DNA of 64,000 nt from a virus. Taxonomy: Duplodnaviria; Heunggongvirae; Uroviricota; Caudoviricetes. A model generated the notes under the pieces. That model had not been told where the DNA came from and ran no database searches. It was given only the letters and a program-made list of their open reading frames with translations. Made by a program: the position numbers and the translations under genes. How positions within the stretch are numbered: the stretch's first letter is position 1; every line of letters begins with the position of its first letter. The stretch lies in IMG/VR virus record IMGVR_UViG_3300012075_000001, positions 15,804 to 79,803 of that record, one strand, 5' to 3'. Below are positions 1,637 to 48,849 of this stretch, one piece after another.

Positions 1637-4600
1637 ATGAACATTAATCATGCCCTTTCCGTACAATCTGACTTCTCGATTGGTCAATCTATGCTTCAGG
1701 TTGACCATATTATTGAGAAAGCAAAGGAGCTGGGTTATCAATCGGTCGCTGTGGTTGATGACATGAGCGTTCATGCGCTTATTCAATTCACATACAAGGC
1801 TGAGAAAGAAGGTATCAAACCTATAACTGGCGTTCGTGTGCGAGTTTATGACGACCCTACCTATCGTCGACCTTCAAGAACATCACAAGAGATTCCTAAA
1901 GAAAACCCGTGGTTCATTTGTAAGGTTTTCGCGAAAACCGAGGTGGGATTCAAAGGGTTGCTTAGGCTATTAACCGAAGCGAATACTCCAGAGCGATTCT
2001 ATTACAATCCTCGTTCATGCCTTAAAGACCTTCTCGAGCTAGAGGATGTGATTGTTACGACGGGCGATATGTTCGGTATGTTTAGTCATCCGAACTACGA
2101 AAAGATTGCACGTCAATTAAAGTCTACCTTTGGCGATGATTTCTACGCAGAGCTGTGCCCTATAAACACACCATTGTTTGACAAGATGAATAAGCGTGCA
2201 ATTGAGCTTGTCAGCACAATGGGTTACAAACCTCTTGTCACCTACCCTTTTCGCTATTCAGATAACGCAGACGCGAATACGATGGATGTAATGAGTGCGA
2301 TTGCTACAAACACGCAATTAGATGCCTCTTTCCGTAGTCGTCAGTATGTTAAAGAATTTGCATTCGTTGGCCCAAATGTAATTATCGACCGCACAAAGGC
2401 AGCAATCGCACGCGGTGTTAAGTTCAATCGAACCATGTTAGATCCAAAAGCCGTAACAGCAATTTGGTCTACAGGTATCAAAAATTGCGATGAGATTGTT
2501 CAAAAGTGCCAGTACAAGTTTGAAAAACAATCAATTTCTCTTCCAAAATTAGCAGACGATGAGTTCAAGAAGTTATGCGATTTGTGTGTAGCGGGCTGGA
2601 AAAAACGATTTAGCAAACCCGTCTTAGGCTATTTGCCCACTAAACAGCAACTCGATACTGATTATAAAGATCGCTTAGGCTATGAGTTAAGAACGCTCAA
2701 AAATATGGGTTTTGAGTCCTACTTCTTAATGGTTGAGGATCTTGTAACGTGGGCCAAGAACAACGGTGTAATTGTAGGACCCGGTCGTGGTTCGGTTGGT
2801 GGTTCATTGGTTGCTTACCTTATTGGCATCACGGACGTAGACCCTATTCGCTTTGGTTTGATCTTCGAGCGTTTTATTAACCCTGAGCGACTAGATTTGC
2901 CCGATGCTGACCTTGACTTTGCCTCTTCGCGTCGTCACAAAGTTGTTGAATACCTCATTGATAAATACGGGAAAGAATACGTTGCGGGTATTTCCAACTA
3001 CTCAACATTAGCTTCGGCTTCAGCATTACGTGATGTCGGTCGTTTAAGCGGTTTAACACCTCTTGAATTAACGGCGTCTAAATTCGTGCTTAAAGATCAC
3101 GGTCAAACAATGTCGCTTGAAGAGTCAGCTAAAGCGGTTCCTGAATTAGACAAATTTAAAAAAGCGCATCCTGAAATTTGGAAGCATGCTGTTAAATTGG
3201 CGGGAACAATGAAGTCGTTCGGTCAACACGCTGCCGGTATTGTTGTAGCGGGTGAACCAATTGTGAACCGTGCTGTTTTGGAGCGTCGATCTGAAGGCAC
3301 GGTCGTAAACTGGGATAAGCGAGTGGTTGAAGACTGTGGCTTAGTAAAAATGGACTTACTGGGTTTGTCCACCTTAGACACGCTTAATATTGCCCGTGAC
3401 TACATCAAAGAACGTCATGGCATCTATCTAAACTACTTAGAAATTCCTTTAGATGATGCTAAGACCTTGCAAGCGTTTGCAAACGGTAATACTACAGGCG
3501 TTTTCCAGTTCGAATCAGGTGGTATGAAACAGCTGCTAAAAGATATCGCAAAGGGTGGCTCAATGACCTTTGATGATATTTCAGCTGCAACCGCTTTGTA
3601 TCGTCCGGGGCCTATGGATTCAGGACTTTTAGACGATTACGTTGCAACCCGTCAAGGTATGCGTTCAGTCAGCTACGATCATCCAAATATGATTGACGCA
3701 CTCAAAGACACTTTAGGCGTCATTATCTATCAAGAACAGGTAATGAAAGTCTCTGTGGACTTTGCAGGTTTTACAAACGCTGAAGCGGACAAACTCCGTA
3801 AAGCGATGGGTAAAAAGAACGTCGACGAAATGAACAAGATGCGTCAAAAGTTCATTGACGGCGCAGTTGCAAAATCAGGAGTAGAACCAGGAGAGGCTGG
3901 ACGAATTTTTGATAAGATCGAAGCCTTTGCTGGCTATGGTTTCAACAAATCTCACTCAGTTGAGTATTCAATCATTTCTGTATGGTGTGCTTATGTTCGC
4001 GTCCACTATCCAGCTGAATATTTTGCTGCATCTTTATCAATCGTAGATGAGGATAAATTGAAAGGTTTGGTGAAGGATGCTCGCGAATGCGGTATCGAAG
4101 TTTTACCGCCAGACATTAACCTTTCTTCTGACCGTTACACCATCTTAGACAATCACAATATTCTTGCACCGTTTAACGCTGTTAAGGGCGTATCAGAGAC
4201 GACGGCACGCGCTATCGTGAAGCTACGCGAAAAGAACCGCGATATGAAGATTGTTAAGTACAAACGCAATGAAGAGAAAACGCCTGTTTATGGTTATGAC
4301 GACGATGCGCCAATTAAAGGTCGCTTTGATAGCTTGTTCGAGTTCCAAGAAGCAGCAGCACAGCCTAAAACTAAGGTAAACTCAAAAGTCGTTGAGTCTC
4401 TTAATGCGATTGGCGCTTTAGCGAGCGTAGAGCCATCACAATTACCCGCTCGACACATCGACCGACGCAAAGCTCAAATGGACTTATTGCCCGGAATTGT
4501 CATCGATACGGTGAAGGCTGACCGAGTTGCTGATCTAAGCGAAAATCACTTAAAGAGTCGCATCATCATGGTGGCTCAGGAATACAAACAGTGTGATGGC

Positions 4601-5098
4601 TGCGATTTGAAAGGTAAAAAGCATCCAGTCATGCGTTGTGGTAACAAAGTTAAGTTTATGGTCGTCACAGATTGTCCAAATGTTGATGAGGACAAGCAAG
4701 ATAAGCTTATGGTAGGTGATGTCTCAACGTATTTGAAGCAAGCAATCAGAGACGCTGGACTAAATCCAAACGACGGTTACTACACTACGATGGTGAAGGC
4801 GCGTAAGTCAGATAAATTCCTTTCTAACTCACAAATTAATAATTGTAGTAAGTACTTGGAAGAAGAGATTAATCTTGTTAAGCCAAGCATTATTGTTGCG
4901 CTAGGCTCTAGTGTGGCCAAGAAGTTTTTGCCTAGTGTTAAGGGCGGCATTTCAGAGTTAAATGCGACCGCTGTTTATGACACTAACCTTGACGCAACTA
5001 TTGTCTGTGGCATTAGTCCTGCACAACTACCCTTTGACCCTTCAAAACTACCAGACCTTACTTTAGCCTTCGAAAAAGTAGCAGAAGTATTAAGTTGA
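1637..5098 (+). CDS. dnaE: DNA polymerase III alpha subunit (DnaE-like) with C-terminal degenerate family-4 UDG-like domain
   Basis: N-terminal PHP-like region and polymerase core (GPGRGS..G.LVAYL, MDLLGL, YRPGPMD, GYGFNKSH). The C-terminal ~170 aa align to family-4 UDG (KFMVVTDCPNVDEDKQ...VGD vs LMIVGEAPGEEEDKQ...VGRAG; LVKPSIIVALGS vs LVRPRVIVALGA). Confidence 0.85.
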   Translation: MNINHALSVQSDFSIGQSMLQVDHIIEKAKELGYQSVAVVDDMSVHALIQFTYKAEKEGIKPITGVRVRVYDDPTYRRPSRTSQEIPKENPWFICKVFAKTEVGFKGLLRLLTEANTPERFYYNPRSCLKDLLELEDVIVTTGDMFGMFSHPNYEKIARQLKSTFGDDFYAELCPINTPLFDKMNKRAIELVSTMGYKPLVTYPFRYSDNADANTMDVMSAIATNTQLDASFRSRQYVKEFAFVGPNVIIDRTKAAIARGVKFNRTMLDPKAVTAIWSTGIKNCDEIVQKCQYKFEKQSISLPKLADDEFKKLCDLCVAGWKKRFSKPVLGYLPTKQQLDTDYKDRLGYELRTLKNMGFESYFLMVEDLVTWAKNNGVIVGPGRGSVGGSLVAYLIGITDVDPIRFGLIFERFINPERLDLPDADLDFASSRRHKVVEYLIDKYGKEYVAGISNYSTLASASALRDVGRLSGLTPLELTASKFVLKDHGQTMSLEESAKAVPELDKFKKAHPEIWKHAVKLAGTMKSFGQHAAGIVVAGEPIVNRAVLERRSEGTVVNWDKRVVEDCGLVKMDLLGLSTLDTLNIARDYIKERHGIYLNYLEIPLDDAKTLQAFANGNTTGVFQFESGGMKQLLKDIAKGGSMTFDDISAATALYRPGPMDSGLLDDYVATRQGMRSVSYDHPNMIDALKDTLGVIIYQEQVMKVSVDFAGFTNAEADKLRKAMGKKNVDEMNKMRQKFIDGAVAKSGVEPGEAGRIFDKIEAFAGYGFNKSHSVEYSIISVWCAYVRVHYPAEYFAASLSIVDEDKLKGLVKDARECGIEVLPPDINLSSDRYTILDNHNILAPFNAVKGVSETTARAIVKLREKNRDMKIVKYKRNEEKTPVYGYDDDAPIKGRFDSLFEFQEAAAQPKTKVNSKVVESLNAIGALASVEPSQLPARHIDRRKAQMDLLPGIVIDTVKADRVADLSENHLKSRIIMVAQEYKQCDGCDLKGKKHPVMRCGNKVKFMVVTDCPNVDEDKQDKLMVGDVSTYLKQAIRDAGLNPNDGYYTTMVKARKSDKFLSNSQINNCSKYLEEEINLVKPSIIVALGSSVAKKFLPSVKGGISELNATAVYDTNLDATIVCGISPAQLPFDPSKLPDLTLAFEKVAEVLS

Positions 5099-6295: not shown

Positions 6296-6316
6296 TCAGT
6301 CAGTACTGACTATACT
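6296..6316 (+). promoter_or_regulatory. palindrome AGTCAGTACTGACT + TATACT (promoter-like)
   Basis: Perfect 14-nt palindrome abutting a -10-like hexamer. Long inverted repeat (GTCAGAAC...GTTCTGAC) downstream. Confidence 0.5.
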
Positions 6317-15958: not shown

Positions 15959-16588
15959 GTGAGTATCAGTGAAGATTTAGAGGAAATCGTCCTCGCACAG
16001 CTAGAGCAGGAGGACAAATTAGTTAAGCAGCACATGGAGGCATGCAAGTTAGAAGATTTAGAGCTTGTCGAAAAGGTCAAAGAAATCCTGACCGGAGTTG
16101 TAAATCAGATGAACGCTGAATTTGATATGAATCAAGAAGATCCTGAATCTTCTGTTTTGTCATTCGCCAATCAATTCATGTTGATTCAAGGTGGAAACAT
16201 TCAGGTTCGAAAAATTTTCAAGAGCGGTGCCGATTCATGGTCACAACGTGAGTTCTTAGGGGGTGAAACTTTTCTTTTGTATCAAGCTGGGATTAACGAA
16301 ACCCTTATAGAGCAAGCAAATCTTTGGACTCAAGAAGGCTTTTTCGACTTAATTCATCTTCGCTTCAAGCCGACATTTGCAGCTGACTTTACAGAAATCA
16401 TGGTTGATATCTGGCGCGGTCAAGAACTCTTTAACGGATTGAAAGAGACATTGACGGAAGTGTTTGACAGCTTCTCGTTTAGACCCGCGATCAAATCAAT
16501 CATGGAAGCAAAAACGGAAATTCTCAAGCTCCGCAATGCGCGTGAGCAAAAAATCCTAAGTTTAAGAAAGAACGTTACAGTGTGGTAA
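15959..16588 (+). CDS. hypothetical protein
   Basis: GTG start with SD AGGAGA. Confidence 0.4.
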   Translation: MSISEDLEEIVLAQLEQEDKLVKQHMEACKLEDLELVEKVKEILTGVVNQMNAEFDMNQEDPESSVLSFANQFMLIQGGNIQVRKIFKSGADSWSQREFLGGETFLLYQAGINETLIEQANLWTQEGFFDLIHLRFKPTFAADFTEIMVDIWRGQELFNGLKETLTEVFDSFSFRPAIKSIMEAKTEILKLRNAREQKILSLRKNVTVW

Positions 16589-16593
16589 AAAAT

Positions 16594-17241
16594 ATGAGTA
16601 ATACATTGAGAGTGGTTGGGATTGATCCAGCGCTGCAAAATATGGGAGTGGTATTTGCAGAAGTTGATTTAACCCAAGAGAACTACTCTTTCAAAGTTGT
16701 AGACATGCAGCTATTCCAAACTGAAGGTGAGAGAGTCACTAAAGTTGTGCTTGGTGCAGATGGCAAGAAACGCACTAAGAAAGTTAAACCGAAGACTTTG
16801 CGACAAAATTTGGATGATCTTCGCAGATCAAGAGAGTTAGCAGAAGGGCTTGCTGAAGCTTGCTCTAAAGCCGATATCGTTATAGCCGAGATACCCACTG
16901 GCTCGCAAGATGCAAGAGGGTGCGTATCATACGGAGTCTGCTTGGGGTTGCTTTCAACTTGTTCCGTTCCCTTTGTTGAAGTTATGCCGAGGGAAGTAAA
17001 ACTCTCAGGAACTGGCATTGATACAGCCAGTAAAGGCGAAATGATCGAAGCGGCAATAAAGGAGCATCCAGAAGCTGACAAATTCTGGCTTAGACGCAAG
17101 CTTAAAGGTGAAATGGTGCTTACTGAAAACAATGAACATTTGGCCGATGCGATTTTTGCCATTAAGGCTGGATTGGCAAAGGAACAGTTTAAAAAGCATG
17201 TTGAAACAATCAAGCAGTTAAAAAATACCCAAACGGTTTAA
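16594..17241 (+). CDS. RuvC-like Holliday junction resolvase
   Basis: VVGIDPALQNMGVVF resembles RuvC ILGIDPGSRVTGYGV. Also has the IVIAEIP acidic motif and a C-terminal LADAIFAIKAG helix. Confidence 0.5.
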   Translation: MSNTLRVVGIDPALQNMGVVFAEVDLTQENYSFKVVDMQLFQTEGERVTKVVLGADGKKRTKKVKPKTLRQNLDDLRRSRELAEGLAEACSKADIVIAEIPTGSQDARGCVSYGVCLGLLSTCSVPFVEVMPREVKLSGTGIDTASKGEMIEAAIKEHPEADKFWLRRKLKGEMVLTENNEHLADAIFAIKAGLAKEQFKKHVETIKQLKNTQTV

Positions 17242-44644: not shown

Positions 44645-44730
44645 ATAACAACTCCTAAGCCATTGATAGTAAGTCCAAAATATTATTGAGAAAATCTTTC
44701 TATCGAAACAAGCAACATAGAGTTATACAA
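44645..44730 (+). repeat. conserved ~70-nt leader element, copy A
   Basis: CCTAAGCCA...ATTGAGAAAAT..CT(C/T)TATCGAAACAAGCAACATAGAG immediately before the ATG. Confidence 0.5.
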
Positions 44731-45309
44731 ATGCAAGTTACATTACATCGCACAGCTAAATTCTCTACAGACGCAATTGTTACAGGATTTGAAAAACCGT
44801 TTATATTGTCTTTATACGCAGATCACTTGCGGTCCATGATGTCTCTGAATAGTGAGAGAAGCAGCGCTTTCATTCAAGAAAACGTAACGCCCAACTCAAA
44901 AGCTCCAGTTAGAGATGACGAACCTTTCCATTATTGTCACAAAGCTCGTGAGCTAACTGAAGAAGAAATAGAAGAGCTTTTCTCAAATCCTCGTGATTAT
45001 GAGTTCTATGATGACTCATATTCTTATTACAGCACTATAGACTTGTCGCATTTATCACATGAGCAGCACAAAACCATAAATTGTGCTATCTCAGCGATAA
45101 ATGATGCTACATGCGGATTTAATGACTATTACGATCGAGAAGAAAGCGAAGACAAAGATGGTTATATTCATGATTATGACAATGCAGAACGTTTAATTGT
45201 CGATCTTGATGCGTGTACAGTCCAATACATGAACGGTTATAAAACTAATTCTGATCATCATCCTGTAGTTTCGTATAAATACGCATTAATTCCATATACA
45301 ACAGAATAA
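44731..45309 (+). CDS. hypothetical protein, paralog of 48358-48849
   Basis: Shared block YYSTIDLSHL(S/T)HEQHK and M(Q/K)VT(L/A)HR start. Conserved leader upstream. Confidence 0.45.
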   Translation: MQVTLHRTAKFSTDAIVTGFEKPFILSLYADHLRSMMSLNSERSSAFIQENVTPNSKAPVRDDEPFHYCHKARELTEEEIEELFSNPRDYEFYDDSYSYYSTIDLSHLSHEQHKTINCAISAINDATCGFNDYYDREESEDKDGYIHDYDNAERLIVDLDACTVQYMNGYKTNSDHHPVVSYKYALIPYTTE

Positions 45310-45437: not shown

Positions 45438-45980
45438 ATGACTAACGAAACTAATGATCAAGTGACTATAGAGCAATTTTTAGCGAAGTTTTCAAACCCT
45501 GATAACAACAAACGTTTTCGCTTAGAAGGCTTCAGTTTTACGCATCAACACGGTTTTAACCTTTACTTTGACGAATACGACGACTTTAAAGACGAGTTAG
45601 GCGATGTAGAAATCGAGTTCTGGCAGCTGGAAGACACTTGGGCCAATGAAGAGATTAAAGTTTCATCTTTCAGCACTCTTGAAACGATAGTTGAGTTTTT
45701 AGTAAGCCTTAATCTTGATGAAGTTAAAGAAGTTGGCGTATACGCAGCTTTAGTCGAAGGTAACTATGCTGATTGGTCAAATGTAAAAGAGTGGCACGAA
45801 GAGCATTATGTTTGTGACTATGAAAACGACGATGACTTTGGACGCTACTTAATTGATGAATTATCCGCTTTAGATATACCTGAAGACATACAAGGCTATT
45901 TTGATTACGAACGCTACGGGCGCGATGCTCTATTAAGCGATTACTGCAAAGCTGAAGGAAAAGTTTACCGAAACTGCTAA
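45438..45980 (+). CDS. acidic hypothetical protein
   Basis: Partial copy of the conserved leader upstream. Terminator downstream. Confidence 0.45.
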   Translation: MTNETNDQVTIEQFLAKFSNPDNNKRFRLEGFSFTHQHGFNLYFDEYDDFKDELGDVEIEFWQLEDTWANEEIKVSSFSTLETIVEFLVSLNLDEVKEVGVYAALVEGNYADWSNVKEWHEEHYVCDYENDDDFGRYLIDELSALDIPEDIQGYFDYERYGRDALLSDYCKAEGKVYRNC

Positions 45981-45985
45981 ACAAC

Positions 45986-46016
45986 AAAGGCGCCGTAATA
46001 GCGCCTTTTCTTTTGT
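45986..46016 (+). terminator. rho-independent terminator
   Basis: AAGGCGC-CGTAATA-GCGCCTTTTCTTTT. Confidence 0.7.
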
Positions 46017-46283
46017 CTAATCACTTCATGGCTTTAAGCATCAAATAAATGAGCCCTACCGCTCCAAGAACAATAAATGCGGTCAACATGCGCCGTACTC
46101 AATTCATATCACATGCAATCATTATAACCATCGCAATAGGAAACACTATAGGCAACATAAGCGCCTCCACTTCTGTGTCCTACCCGGTATTTATACAATG
46201 CTCATATCAAGACAACGAAGCGCTGTAGTAATACAAATCGTGTGTATTGATAGATAAAAACGGTCTCACAAGCCACCTTTAAG

Positions 46284-46322
46284 CCAGCTCTATTCCCCCT
46301 ATTCGAGAGCTGGCTCTTTTTA
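46284..46322 (+). terminator. terminator-like hairpin inside noncoding region
   Basis: GCCAGCTCT-(13 nt)-AGAGCTGGC-TCTTTTTA. Confidence 0.45.
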
Positions 46323-47164
46323 TGCAAAATCAGCAAAAACAGGCAGTTAGAGCAATATTATTGTATATCATTGATTTATAGGAAATTTTACACAAATAAA
46401 CTGACTTGTAACTAACTCATAACTTACCCAACCGCCCTTATTATTGTCAGATAAGTAAACACACCCAATTTAACTCTTCATAATCACTCATAACAGCGCG
46501 CTAGAGACGCTTTAAACCTAAAGATGGTGAATCACTCATAACATACCTAAAACGCTCTCTAAAGCAATTCTATGCGCAATTACTAAATTAGGTTTTTGGC
46601 TATATCCGCGGCTAAACGTTATAACAAACAATCAGGCTTTCTTAAAGGCACAATTCATAATATCCGTATTATCGTAATATCATATTCCCATACGCCCATA
46701 CATACATACGGTAATATCGTAATACGCTAACAAACATATAGATCAAACAACGCATTTTTTAAAACGTATTCTAATAAAGAGAACTTACTATAAAACAATC
46801 TAACTACTCTACTGCTAACCCATAGAACAGCTAATCACATAACACACGCGCAATTTCATAACGCTATCTAAATAATCAAACTACCAATAAACCTTACTTC
46901 TCTATACGCTACTAAAACAAATCAATTAACACTGACAAAAACAATAACAATGACACGGACAATGATAAGTAAGCGCTGAACACTATATACACCAAGGATA
47001 GAGAGAATAACTCATATAACAATGATTCATCATACACGGATACATAGAGCCATAGGAAGTATGCATATAGGAGTTTATAAAGGAGTGATACATAGAGAGG
47101 GGAGTTGTGCAGTGTGCAGGAAGCGACCGAAGGGAGCGGTGGATTCAATCGATTAAAAAATTGT

Positions 47165-47245
47165 CTCCGCCAAGTTTCTTACACTTGCAAAGTCAGTAAC
47201 TACTGACTAAACTTTCGAACGAAAGTTTTCACCGCTTGGCGGTGG
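47165..47245 (+). promoter_or_regulatory. palindromic motif nested inside a long inverted repeat, no -10
   Basis: CCGCCAAG...AGTCAGTAACTACTGACT...AAACTTTCGAACGAAAGTTT...CTTGGCGG. Confidence 0.4.
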
Positions 47246-47751
47246 ACCCATTTTGCTTTTGATAGGGGTGCGTTTTACTTAGGGTCGACGTTTACCAACT
47301 ACGGAATGTTAGCATTTCGATGTGGCGTAGATTAAGTAATTGCCTTCTCCCTTCCTTCTCGTTTAATTGTCTTTTTAGGCTACGGGGGGGAAGGGGGGGC
47401 ATTTTCACTTCTTCTAACGTTTTCACATCGGAATGGTGTAATACTTTAAAAGCTTATAAGAACAATGAAAAATCCCAATGAAATTCCTGAACAAACTAAT
47501 TTTCCAAAAATCACATATACACACTGGCAAATGGCACAAAAATTTCGTCGCCGAGGCAAATCCACAAAGCCAACAATTCAATTATCCACGGCGCACCCAA
47601 GGCATGTTCCACGCAAAAGTTGGCGAATCCTTGGGTGAAACATGCGGCTAATCGGAAGAGGCGATTGATGAATATCACTACGCCATGCGGTGTATGTCCA
47701 GCTGCTAAATATCACAATGCACATATCGAAAACGTATAGAGAGAAACGGCA

Positions 47752-48140: not shown

Positions 48141-48283
48141 TAGGCGGTTTTCTTTTTGGCCACATTCTTGCCTAGGCCAATCCAATTTTCACTCAGGCAC
48201 AGGCCAAGGCATTTTTCATGAGGCTAATCCTCGGCACATCCACGGCGCGGCCAACACACAGGAGACATGCACACAACGCCTAA

Positions 48284-48357: not shown

Positions 48358-48849
48358 ATGAAAGTTACAGCACACCGTATAGCACCAATGGGTTATGATG
48401 CTTTGATCATAGGTTTTGATCGCCCTTGTATAATATCGCTTTGCAAAGACACCGTTTCGCCTCTGTGTGGTTCGAGCTTAAATAACGACAGAAGCGTGTT
48501 TCGATATAGCTCATTTACTGAAGAGGATGAGCAAAACCCTAACTTGAGCGCCAAAGACTATGCGTATGTTGATGGTTTAGGTTTTAGTGATTTTTACCGT
48601 TATTACAGCACTATAGACTTGTCACACTTGACGCATGAACAGCATAAAATCATGTATACAGCGGTTGCAGAAATTAACGATGTAACCGACTTCTGCAACT
48701 ACACTCCAATGCCAGAAGAGTGTGAGCAGGAGCGTGAAGATTGTCGCAAGCTCATGAAGCGCACAGACAACATGGTAATTAATTTGAAGAAGCTCCACAT
48801 AAAATATTCAGACGGTGAAAAAGCAACTTACGACGACTTACACAACTAA
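48358..48849 (+). CDS. hypothetical protein, paralog of 44731-45309
   Basis: Shared YYSTIDLSHLTHEQHK block. Conserved leader upstream. Confidence 0.45.
   Translation: MKVTAHRIAPMGYDALIIGFDRPCIISLCKDTVSPLCGSSLNNDRSVFRYSSFTEEDEQNPNLSAKDYAYVDGLGFSDFYRYYSTIDLSHLTHEQHKIMYTAVAEINDVTDFCNYTPMPEECEQEREDCRKLMKRTDNMVINLKKLHIKYSDGEKATYDDLHN

Follow-up and report, generated by a model that had tools for sequence, protein, structure and literature searches.

At the right end of a 1.7-kb gap between genes (positions 46017-47751) in the 64,000-nucleotide (nt) stretch of viral DNA analyzed here, which we call the window, a conserved promoter is followed by a long, covarying hairpin RNA that represents a new, well-supported structured RNA family, matching no described RNA family. 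The window is part of a ~110-kb Acinetobacter baumannii phage-plasmid of the SSU5/pMT1/pHCM2 supergroup. We read the whole gap as a non-coding RNA locus, in which the hairpin would belong to the leader of a rightward transcription unit and act as a two-state switch, and in which the strand-skewed sequence to its left would give rise to a second RNA; for this full explanation, leader-switch mechanism and second RNA included, we estimate a probability of about 0.5. That the hairpin itself is a selected RNA structure is very likely. An initial annotation of the sequence had put forward an origin of replication or packaging region, with a long non-coding RNA locus as the alternative, and it is the alternative that gains support from the conserved promoter, the covarying G·U-rich hairpin, the strand-specific composition and the bracketing of the skewed tract in enterobacterial relatives.

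A hairpin RNA conserved in structure

The elements at the right end of the gap are as follows.

47185 to 47213, plus strand: sigma-70-type promoter (-35 TTGCAA at 47185-47190, 17-nt spacer, -10 TAAACT at 47208-47213)
47228 to 47246, plus strand: 5′ hairpin of the transcript by predicted fold (UUCACCGC-uug-GCGGUGGA), which includes the right arm of a long inverted repeat
47261 to 47308, plus strand: module A, a diverged direct copy of the 3′ arm of the long hairpin (GATAGGGGTGCGTTTTACTT..ACGTTTACCAACTACGGAATG) that can pair with the 5′ arm instead
47310 to 47438, plus strand: long hairpin RNA by fold and covariance model, 51 pairs (8 G·U), base stem CAUUUCGAUGUG/CACAUCGGAAUG

The hairpin is ~125 nt long and begins ~95 nt past the promoter, with a pyrimidine arm (47343-47362), an apical loop and the G-tract G7-AA-G7 (47384-47399), so that the pyrimidine/purine pair picked out by the initial annotation at 47343-47405 is the apical helix of this conserved structure. 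In a 79%-identical relative (hereafter the relative), positions 47224-47440 are ~93% identical, exceeding the flanking coding gene at 88%. A helicase-anchored search of species-representative genomes, based on the helicase gene downstream of the gap, led to a more distant locus in Acinetobacter geminorum. At this locus, as at other diverged helicase loci, blastn and nhmmer see no similarity to the gap, and the homology was first recognized when the A. geminorum gap was read through, and then from structure. Here, an ORF-free gap (open reading frame, ORF) at the same position holds the same parts in the same order in window orientation: a purine-rich repeat tract with a similar end block, a TTTACA-17-TATACT promoter, a 5′ hairpin, TTTGCTT-GATGGGGGT, the arm TCTCCCCAAACTCTCTCC and G7-TTT-G7, with the helix centre flipped from UU:AA in the window to AAA:UUU. 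Among 84 helicase loci screened, 20 contain G-run pairs, all in the same relative orientation and 4.8-7.6 kb beyond the helicase; among the 20 are additional lineages that carry G6-TAA-G7, G7-TA-G7, G6-TTT-G6 or G6-A-G7, each with a matching pyrimidine arm. The hairpin is found at 13 loci from ~11 lineages, in related elements of ~105-118 kb.

When folded independently, all 11 lineages form the same extended hairpin, with 44-60 pairs each, 6-13 of them G·U, and the plus strand (-83 to -121 kcal/mol) is more stable than the minus strand (-55 to -78 kcal/mol) by 20-46 kcal/mol; the controls for these 11-lineage folds were mononucleotide shuffles. The window hairpin has a z-score of -5.9, and not one of 200 dinucleotide shuffles was equally stable. 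From five GC-rich lineages we built a covariance model, which finds every Acinetobacter lineage and one new one, and places the window copy, on which it was not built, at 47312-47436 (24.7 bits, E 0.005). With a broader model this copy scores 70.8 bits and two held-out lineages score 87.7 and 48.7 bits, with one copy per element. In the model-guided alignment, 88.8% of cells are paired, as against 68.5 ± 1.4% in shuffles and 50-63% in slid controls, and both-sided changes occur in 32 of 42 pairs, a level that none of 500 shuffles reaches. A MAFFT alignment of the whole RNA misplaced the arms and was excluded from the covariation analysis. Free of any alignment, a duplex test gives the same picture, as the most stable duplex of each 3′ arm is with the 5′ arm of its own lineage in 10/10 lineages (mean -66.7 vs -40.7 kcal/mol). 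As expected of structured RNAs in general, compensatory changes thus exceed the controls, and the promoter is placed, oriented and conserved with the structure.

The G-runs are constrained in a manner of their own. Opposite them only C and U alternate. Each run consists of 5-7 invariant Gs, and the W bases at the centre covary with the opposite arm; in all lineages G5-7-W-G5-7 lies ~170 nt downstream of the promoter. As a property of its sequence, G7-AA-G7 parses as G3-N1-G3-N2-G3-N1-G3, a short-loop G-quadruplex motif. Rfam 15 holds no match at gathering thresholds, and the hits of a permissive scan all had E ≥ 2 and scores of 14-19 bits, where the thresholds are 38-54. The pABTJ2-type copy lies unannotated in 127 Acinetobacter plasmids, besides 27 plasmids of the GR30 type. 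Covariance models, run with filters off as well, found zero homologs in pMT1, E. coli or Klebsiella plasmids; a pattern scan for a pyrimidine arm with G7-N-G7 gave mostly poly-G assembly artefacts and unrelated GC-rich phages, and a second pattern gave no new lineage.

A family-wide promoter class

The spacer of the promoter at 47185-47213 holds a palindromic operator, AGTCAGT-AACT-ACTGACT (47191-47208), and transcription is predicted to start at ~47218-47222. The initial annotation had described a copy of a genome-wide 14-mer at this site as lacking a -10 box, but the box is present as TAAACT, with its -35 element, in the same register as the TATACT that follows other 14-mer copies in the window, and the relative has TTGAAA-17-TACAAT at this position. 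Ten further lineages carry cTTGACa-N5-CAGTCACnACTGAC-TATnAT at the same distance from the hairpin. In the 10 lineages with promoters read, the -35, operator and -10 are kept ~95-125 nt upstream of the hairpin, and the promoter is conserved, its distance to the hairpin fixed, across lineages with helicase identities of 54-92%. Judged by its sequence context, the 14-mer is the spacer/operator of a promoter class conserved throughout the family. The class, as TTGACA-N5-CAGTCACnACTGAC-TATnAT, is kept in distant metagenome relatives with 54-57% helicase identity, which implies conserved regulator binding in the promoter spacer. Its palindrome, AGTCAGTACTGACT / AGTCACTACTGACT, is found in the window at 6298, 12777, 17260, 20701, 22712, 29417, 30326, 32464, 36575, 47191, 50647, 53507 (minus strand), 60154 and 63872, among others.

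Just past the promoter, a 5′ hairpin of differing sequence occurs in all lineages, and between the window (CACCGC/GCGGTG) and the relative (CACTGC/GCAGTG) it has undergone a compensatory C:G to U:A change. The long inverted repeat that shares its right arm, CCGCCAAG/CTTGGCGG (47167-47174/47235-47242), had been noted together with an inner perfect palindrome. Both are present in the window, but the relative gains an A·A mismatch in the repeat, which weakens it, and has lost the palindrome, and we therefore rejected the two as functional units.

Predicted alternative folds and a proposed leader switch

In every lineage, the ~45 nt before the hairpin (module A) resemble its 3′ arm (module B), and the likeness is lineage-specific. 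When transcripts are truncated just before the G-tract, pairing between the 5′ arm and module A is predicted in 11/11 lineages, and module A pairs best with the 5′ arm of its own lineage in 5/10 lineages, where ~1 would be expected by chance. From these predicted foldings, two mutually exclusive folds are moderately supported. The long hairpin is followed by UAAUACUUUAAAAGC and not by a U-tract, and so does not have the form of an intrinsic terminator or attenuator; in the pABTJ2/geminorum type only, an intrinsic terminator lies ~150 nt downstream of the hairpin. The first plus-strand ORF begins 555-600 nt past the -35 in nine lineages examined by eye on ORF maps, and the spacer from hairpin to gene (~300 nt) is conserved in length, with adjacent downstream genes that are non-homologous between lineages.

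We hypothesize that a rightward early/accessory transcription unit has this RNA as its leader, and that the leader works as a switch with two states. While the RNA is being transcribed, its 5′ arm would pair first with module A. Once made, module B, the arm with the G-runs, would displace module A and form the far more stable long hairpin, with the prevailing fold deciding whether RNA polymerase reads through into the downstream genes. Rho could mediate this by acting on the unstructured, G-poor and C-rich tail past the hairpin, or RNase III by cleaving the long duplex, and the invariant G-runs, which are G-quadruplex-capable when unpaired, may be a sensed or protein-bound element.

A second candidate RNA in the skewed tract

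To the left of the promoter lies a tract of unusual composition (46330-47160), made up of the following parts.

46330 to 46985, plus strand: G-poor, A/C-rich, nearly structure-free tract (G 7-14 per 100 nt)
46383 to 46415, plus strand: candidate weak promoter of the skewed tract, TTTTACACAAATAAACTGACTTGTAAC, with the ACTGACT half of the family operator, in a block conserved in the relative
46653 to 46726, no strand assigned: short direct and inverted repeats GTAATA/TATTAC around CCATACGCCCATACATACATA, from the repeat scan
46990 to 47160, plus strand: purine-rich tract with TAGAGAG-type repeats and the terminal conserved block GCGACCGAAGGGAGCGGTGGATTC, from composition and motif count

The sharp switch in strand composition reported by the initial annotation is real. 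G makes up 9.5% of 46351-46950, the minimum among all 600-nt windows of the stretch (median 22%), and the GC skew changes from -0.3 to -0.7 at 46350-46950 to +0.3 to +0.53 at 47000-47150, a switch that is also kept in four other lineages, E. coli and Klebsiella among them. For the right-hand part, described earlier as purine-rich, the flip in skew stands, but a purine content of 0.60-0.62 is exceeded in other parts of the window. In 130-nt windows, the G-poor tract folds at -2 to -15 kcal/mol with z-scores of 0 to +3.3, and so has less structure than shuffled sequence. Its sequence is ~70% conserved, in patches, in the relative, and its composition is kept out to E. coli and Klebsiella; that a strand-specific composition is kept without sequence conservation argues for a function at the level of RNA or of a single strand. 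Within the purine-rich tract, 47123-47146 are identical in the relative.

The enterobacterial relatives give this tract its outline. In SSU5-type plasmids of E. coli and Klebsiella (helicase ~41% identical), unannotated 1.55-kb gaps at the syntenic position contain ~800 nt at 7-16% G, followed by a GA-rich tract with TAGAGAG-type repeats, the densest such cluster of each locus, and these gaps contain no strongly structured segment. The motif cluster and the GA tract fall together in L054, with 6 copies per 250 nt where 0.17 would be expected, in E. coli and Klebsiella, with 3 against ~0.1, and also in L008. On the strand of the window's orientation, the enterobacterial tracts have a promoter-like block at one end and a terminator-like hairpin at the other, both conserved, and this bracketing makes them a candidate ~0.8-kb non-coding RNA. 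The block at 46383-46415 of the window resembles the promoter-like block heading these tracts, and we infer that it may drive the skewed tract. On the sequence evidence, the tract is most likely a separate, nearly structure-free non-coding RNA of ~0.8 kb on the same strand as the hairpin RNA, perhaps serving as a protein-binding platform. One candidate role, a CrcZ-like Hfq sponge, was rejected, since A-R-N and AANAANAA motifs are not above the expectation from composition in any of five lineages; the frequency of GGA in a GA-rich tract is uninformative for a CsrA sponge.

Short repeats are scattered through the tract. The direct repeats described near 46660-46730, TATCGTAATA and CATACATAC, are present, but with two copies each they are not iteron-like as had been claimed. 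The equivalent of 46653-46726 in the relative is a clean 14-nt inverted repeat, TATCATATTACCGT/ACGGTAATATGATA, and the site looks like a candidate protein-binding site inside the G-poor tract. The motif AATCACTCATAAC occurs at 46415, 46482, 46530 and 47005, as two exact 14-mers 48 nt apart and two variants, partly conserved in the relative. In E. coli L131 (19910-20030, minus strand), four ~25-nt AACGG-type repeats lie just past the terminator of the skewed tract (AACGGCTGGGTTGCC, AACGGCTGGAGGTTTTC, AACGGTCGAGTTGCC and AACGGTGGAGTACC); they stand where Acinetobacter has the hairpin, and Klebsiella retains them in part.

Points against the proposed explanation

Several observations weigh against the full explanation. 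In the window itself, the pairing of module A with the 5′ arm ranks 4th of 10, the energy margin is small, and the lineages are non-independent. An intrinsic terminator within 900 nt after the hairpin is absent in 9/11 lineages, the part given to Rho or RNase III is pure conjecture, and transcription itself, with its start site and 3′ end, is a prediction. A further ~55 loci with a helicase of this family lack the hairpin, as do the enterobacterial members. The alignment behind the pair counts was fitted to the model structure, while the 11-lineage folds and the arm-duplex test are independent of it. In the skewed tract, the proposed promoter of the window fits the consensus poorly, and the large upstream non-coding stretch, which is found in Acinetobacter lineages, is absent from GC-rich lineages; the two parts of the locus are therefore separable and may be functionally unrelated.

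Comparison with known systems

Among described systems, leader RNA switches (attenuators, HK022 put, riboswitch platforms) share with the hairpin locus a promoter directly upstream, genes downstream, a conserved fold, alternative exclusive pairings from a duplicated arm and, in one lineage, a downstream intrinsic terminator. Unlike them, the hairpin has no sequence or Rfam similarity and, at ~50 bp, is far longer than the put stem-loops; neither of its folds is a U-tract terminator, no ligand, leader peptide or polymerase-binding feature is identifiable, and the two states are only predicted. The small immunity RNAs P1 c4 and P4 CI (~77-79 nt, RNase P) are processed from the leader of the operon that they control, and their repeated segments are complementary to downstream targets. 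Like these, the hairpin RNA occurs in a phage-plasmid, in the leader of a rightward operon, with a repressor-type operator and internal repeats. Its repeats, however, are direct copies competing for one partner, and complementary downstream targets were neither sought nor found. The skewed tract recalls protein sponges (CsrB/RsmY/RsmZ, Pseudomonas CrcZ) in being long, non-coding and low in structure with short repeated motifs, in having its own promoter and terminator in the enterobacterial tracts, and in a GA tract with many GGA/AGGAG. It differs in that its A-R-N and AANAANAA motifs are not enriched, GGA is not in hairpin loops, no Rfam match exists, and 0.8 kb is far longer.

Alternative explanations

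The origin or packaging reading of the initial annotation fares poorly, and we consider it very improbable that the gap is the plasmid-mode origin (oriV) or a pac/cos site. In its favour are the large size of the non-coding region, its change in skew, its short repeats and its palindromes, together with the ends of related isolate-genome contigs, two of five of which lie inside the gap, L001 at window ~47171, before the promoter palindrome, and L004/L052 at 47395, in G7-AA-G7. These breaks would also fit a physical end, but they are better explained by assembly failure, probably at the G-rich hairpin and the dispersed repeat. A Rep_3 iteron origin would likewise be non-coding with short direct repeats; the real origin of the family, however, lies elsewhere. 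In a complete circular relative, the Rep_3 gene is 63 kb from the gap, and four tandem 22-bp iterons, a fifth copy and an AT-rich stretch are found directly upstream of rep (L007 14137-14408), in line with the four 22-bp iterons reported beside rep in pABTJ2-type plasmids (PMC4411360). The cumulative GC-skew plot that had been proposed as a check, run on the complete relative, has its minimum at 12,753 bp, beside rep, and the gap (77.3-79.1 kb in this relative) lies just past the detrended skew maximum (76.1 kb). Within the gap, repeats are two-copy, 10-27 nt long and partly conserved, with no tandem array of three or more; the palindromes are not conserved; and no initiator gene is adjacent, the neighbours being an ArdA-like gene and small unknown genes. 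The large terminase gene and a candidate small terminase gene (winged helix-turn-helix) are located 11 kb downstream. Beside the small terminase gene of the window, a search for long palindromes found none. In enterobacterial relatives, AT-rich palindromes stand just upstream of the small terminase gene (L130 8349-8458, L131 8531-8705, L132 8346-8457); the hairpin model matches them weakly on both strands, and they would make a more conventional pac/cos or late-promoter site.

R-loop primer systems such as ColE1 RNA II, T4 oriF/oriG and mitochondrial LSP-CSBII (G6-A-G8) raise the idea of a transcription-primed lytic origin, which we regard as quite unlikely. Here, the promoter at 47185-47213 would transcribe G7-AA-G7, the G-rich RNA would form a persistent hybrid with DNA (an R-loop), possibly with a displaced-strand G-quadruplex, and the RNA 3′ end would prime phage DNA synthesis after induction; just as doubtful is the accompanying proposal that R-loops would be gated by the RNA hairpin and the fold that competes with it. 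The layout invites it, with a promoter 100-200 nt (here ~170 nt) upstream of a G6-7-W-G6-7 close to the G6-A-G8 of CSBII, the tract (G5-7-W1-3-G5-7) being invariant and on the non-template strand, its G-runs constrained as sequence beyond their pairing role, and a folded upstream RNA that could gate hybrid formation. Furthermore, no other non-coding region of the element is as large as the gap, genes for a helicase, a primase and a polymerase are carried by the element itself, and a literature search found no paper defining a lytic origin, nor anything on non-coding RNA or G-tract strings in these elements. Unlike in the R-loop systems, however, the G-tract is sequestered in a co-evolving RNA helix, paired to a pyrimidine arm with G·U pairs, which indicates a folded RNA and not an RNA-DNA hybrid. 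The module is also lacking in most of the supergroup, and none of the enterobacterial members with the shared replication genes carries it; the skew shows no origin signature in the gap, its minimum and the iterons both being at rep; and no AT-rich unwinding element after the G-tract, adjacent initiator gene or RNA I-like antisense regulator is evident.

It is also unlikely that the region acts as DNA, as a control region or centromere-like site whose repeats and operator bind phage regulators or partition/segregation proteins, with the RNA folds incidental. The TAGAGAG-type, AATCACTCATAAC and GTAATA/TATTAC motifs are conserved in kind across lineages, the operator palindrome is family-wide and stands at many promoters, and two ParB-N-domain genes lie a few kb from the gap in all relatives. 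Yet double-stranded sites cannot explain a composition kept without sequence or a G·U-dependent strand asymmetry of 20-46 kcal/mol, covariation preserves pairing and not sequence, and the repeats are few and irregularly spaced.

Other features of the gap

The remaining features lie at the two ends of the gap.

45986 to 46008, both strands: bidirectional intrinsic terminator, which ends the ArdA-like gene (45438-45980) and would also stop a minus-strand mini-ORF transcript
46021 to 46089, minus strand: mini-ORF1, a 22-amino-acid (aa) hydrophobic peptide, MLTAFIVLGAVGLIYLMLKAMK, from the ORF scan and the relative
46099 to 46158, minus strand: mini-ORF2, doubtful, a 19-aa hydrophobic peptide, MLPIVFPIAMVIMIACDMN, with a GGAGG Shine-Dalgarno sequence, from the ORF scan
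46282 to 46322, plus strand: intrinsic-terminator-like hairpin with a 10-bp perfect stem and 14-nt loop, then CTCTTTTTAT, from the repeat scan
47439 to 47751, plus strand: non-coding spacer up to the next gene, with an A/C-rich, G-poor tail (47440-47545) followed by a GC-richer part

The gap contains no long conserved ORF. A 57-aa ORF at 47465-47638 is interrupted by an in-frame stop at codon 14 in the relative, PGAP annotates nothing in the relative's gap, and this gap, at 1,762 nt, is the longest ORF-free stretch in 100 kb there. The description of the region as gene-free holds in this sense, but it overlooked the two tiny minus-strand ORFs at 46021-46089 and 46099-46158. Mini-ORF1 reads MLTALIVLGAIGLIYLMLKAMK in the relative (F>L, V>I and one synonymous change), in one of the best conserved stretches of the gap; mini-ORF2 retains its frame and stop there, with ATG changed to ATA. 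Conservation against the relative is uneven, being high at 46017-46135 (the mini-ORF region), 46340-46430 and 47090-47165 (the end of the purine tract). Where the window has the terminator at 45986-46008, called terminator-like on both strands by the scan, the relative has a different but equivalent hairpin.

The terminator-like hairpin seen earlier at ~46284-46322 is confirmed and has the form of an intrinsic terminator, with arms at 46282-46291/46306-46315 that make a perfect 10-bp stem, followed by a T-run; the relative keeps the stem identical and has diverged in the loop. The terminator scan had skipped it because its loop exceeds 8 nt. Together with the two tandem mini-ORFs, its layout recalls a type I toxin-antitoxin or small membrane-peptide operon. 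The plus-strand hairpin is 130-200 nt upstream of mini-ORF1, and across 46021-46322 a convincing promoter was found for neither RNA.

In the GC-richer part of the right-hand spacer are short palindromes (CCACGG/CCAAGG/CCTTGG) and a 15-nt inverted repeat (47602-47645). ATCCACGGCGCACCCAAGGCAT-like repeats and CCWWGG/CCNNGG palindromes precede small genes at 47584-47611 and 48204-48254 of the window, and the same units occur in the spacers past the hairpin in L056, L065, L093, L111 and L117, with four tandem CGTTCCTTGG in L056. Clustering of these CCNNGG arrays is not significant in the window, though striking in some relatives.

The element and its relatives

The window encodes a PolIII-alpha/uracil-DNA glycosylase fusion, ribonucleotide reductase, an SbcCD-like pair, terminase and portal, nearly all on the plus strand. 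In the fusion (1637-5098), the glycosylase domain is C-terminal to DNA polymerase III alpha (Pfam UDG, residues 1004-1136). Exact protein matches assign the window to a contig of 109,760 bp, and the cluster mates of its proteins all come from A. baumannii contigs of 105-111 kb. The INPHARED phage collection gave zero DNA or protein matches to the region, its flanks or the polymerase gene, and a search of a plasmid collection found 27 circular A. baumannii plasmids (105-114 kb) with a 78.8%-identical version of the region. The annotation of one such plasmid, pDA33098-108, lists a RepB/Rep_3 initiator, ParA, a DnaB-like helicase, primase, dnaE, terminase, portal, capsid and tail genes, and this combination of plasmid and phage genes makes the element a phage-plasmid. 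In the Acinetobacter typing scheme, its Rep protein falls into the R3-T9/GR30 type (PMC9927589). Relatives of the helicase encoded downstream of the gap occur in 1,057 plasmids of SSU5/pMT1/pHCM2 type (Klebsiella 346, Escherichia 228, Acinetobacter 161, Enterobacter 92, Yersinia 62, Salmonella 49) and in ~80 metagenome viral contigs of 105-118 kb. For the ArdA-like flank protein no distant homologs were found, and it was unusable for reaching diverged loci.

With this ArdA-like anti-restriction gene (45438-45980) as its left neighbour, the gap lies in an accessory/anti-defence neighbourhood. The genes at 44686-45309 and 48358-48849, one on each side of the gap, are paralogs, both assigned to phrog_8815 (PHROG, unknown function). 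A related phage-plasmid, L007 (NZ_CP029570.1), encodes an Hfq-like RNA chaperone (179 aa; 16225-16764) between rep and the DnaB-like helicase; the counterpart region of the window's element falls beyond the window edges.

Implications

Clinical Acinetobacter, Klebsiella, E. coli, Salmonella and Yersinia commonly carry phage-plasmids of the SSU5/pMT1/pHCM2 type, whose switching between maintenance and lytic growth is to our knowledge hardly understood. The hairpin RNA sits unannotated in at least 154 sequenced Acinetobacter plasmids, where annotation pipelines leave the locus blank. In a speculative and probably mistaken extension, the promoter and G-run hairpin would form a new class of riboregulator, in which the G-runs are locked in a ~50-bp G·U-rich helix or freed by the upstream copy of its arm; the freed G-tract would then act through a G-quadruplex or R-loop, either priming lytic replication in a CSBII-like manner or stopping transcription, and the adjacent structure-free, G-poor RNA of 0.8 kb, present also in SSU5-type phage-plasmids of E. 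coli and Klebsiella, would represent another new type of long non-coding RNA. We know of few conserved G-quadruplex-capable RNAs in bacteria, and one held in a co-evolving helix with a built-in competitor strand should interest RNA biologists whatever its role. For the phage-plasmids themselves, the promoter class, the covarying RNA and the shared structure-free tract offer testable handles on the regulation of these elements.

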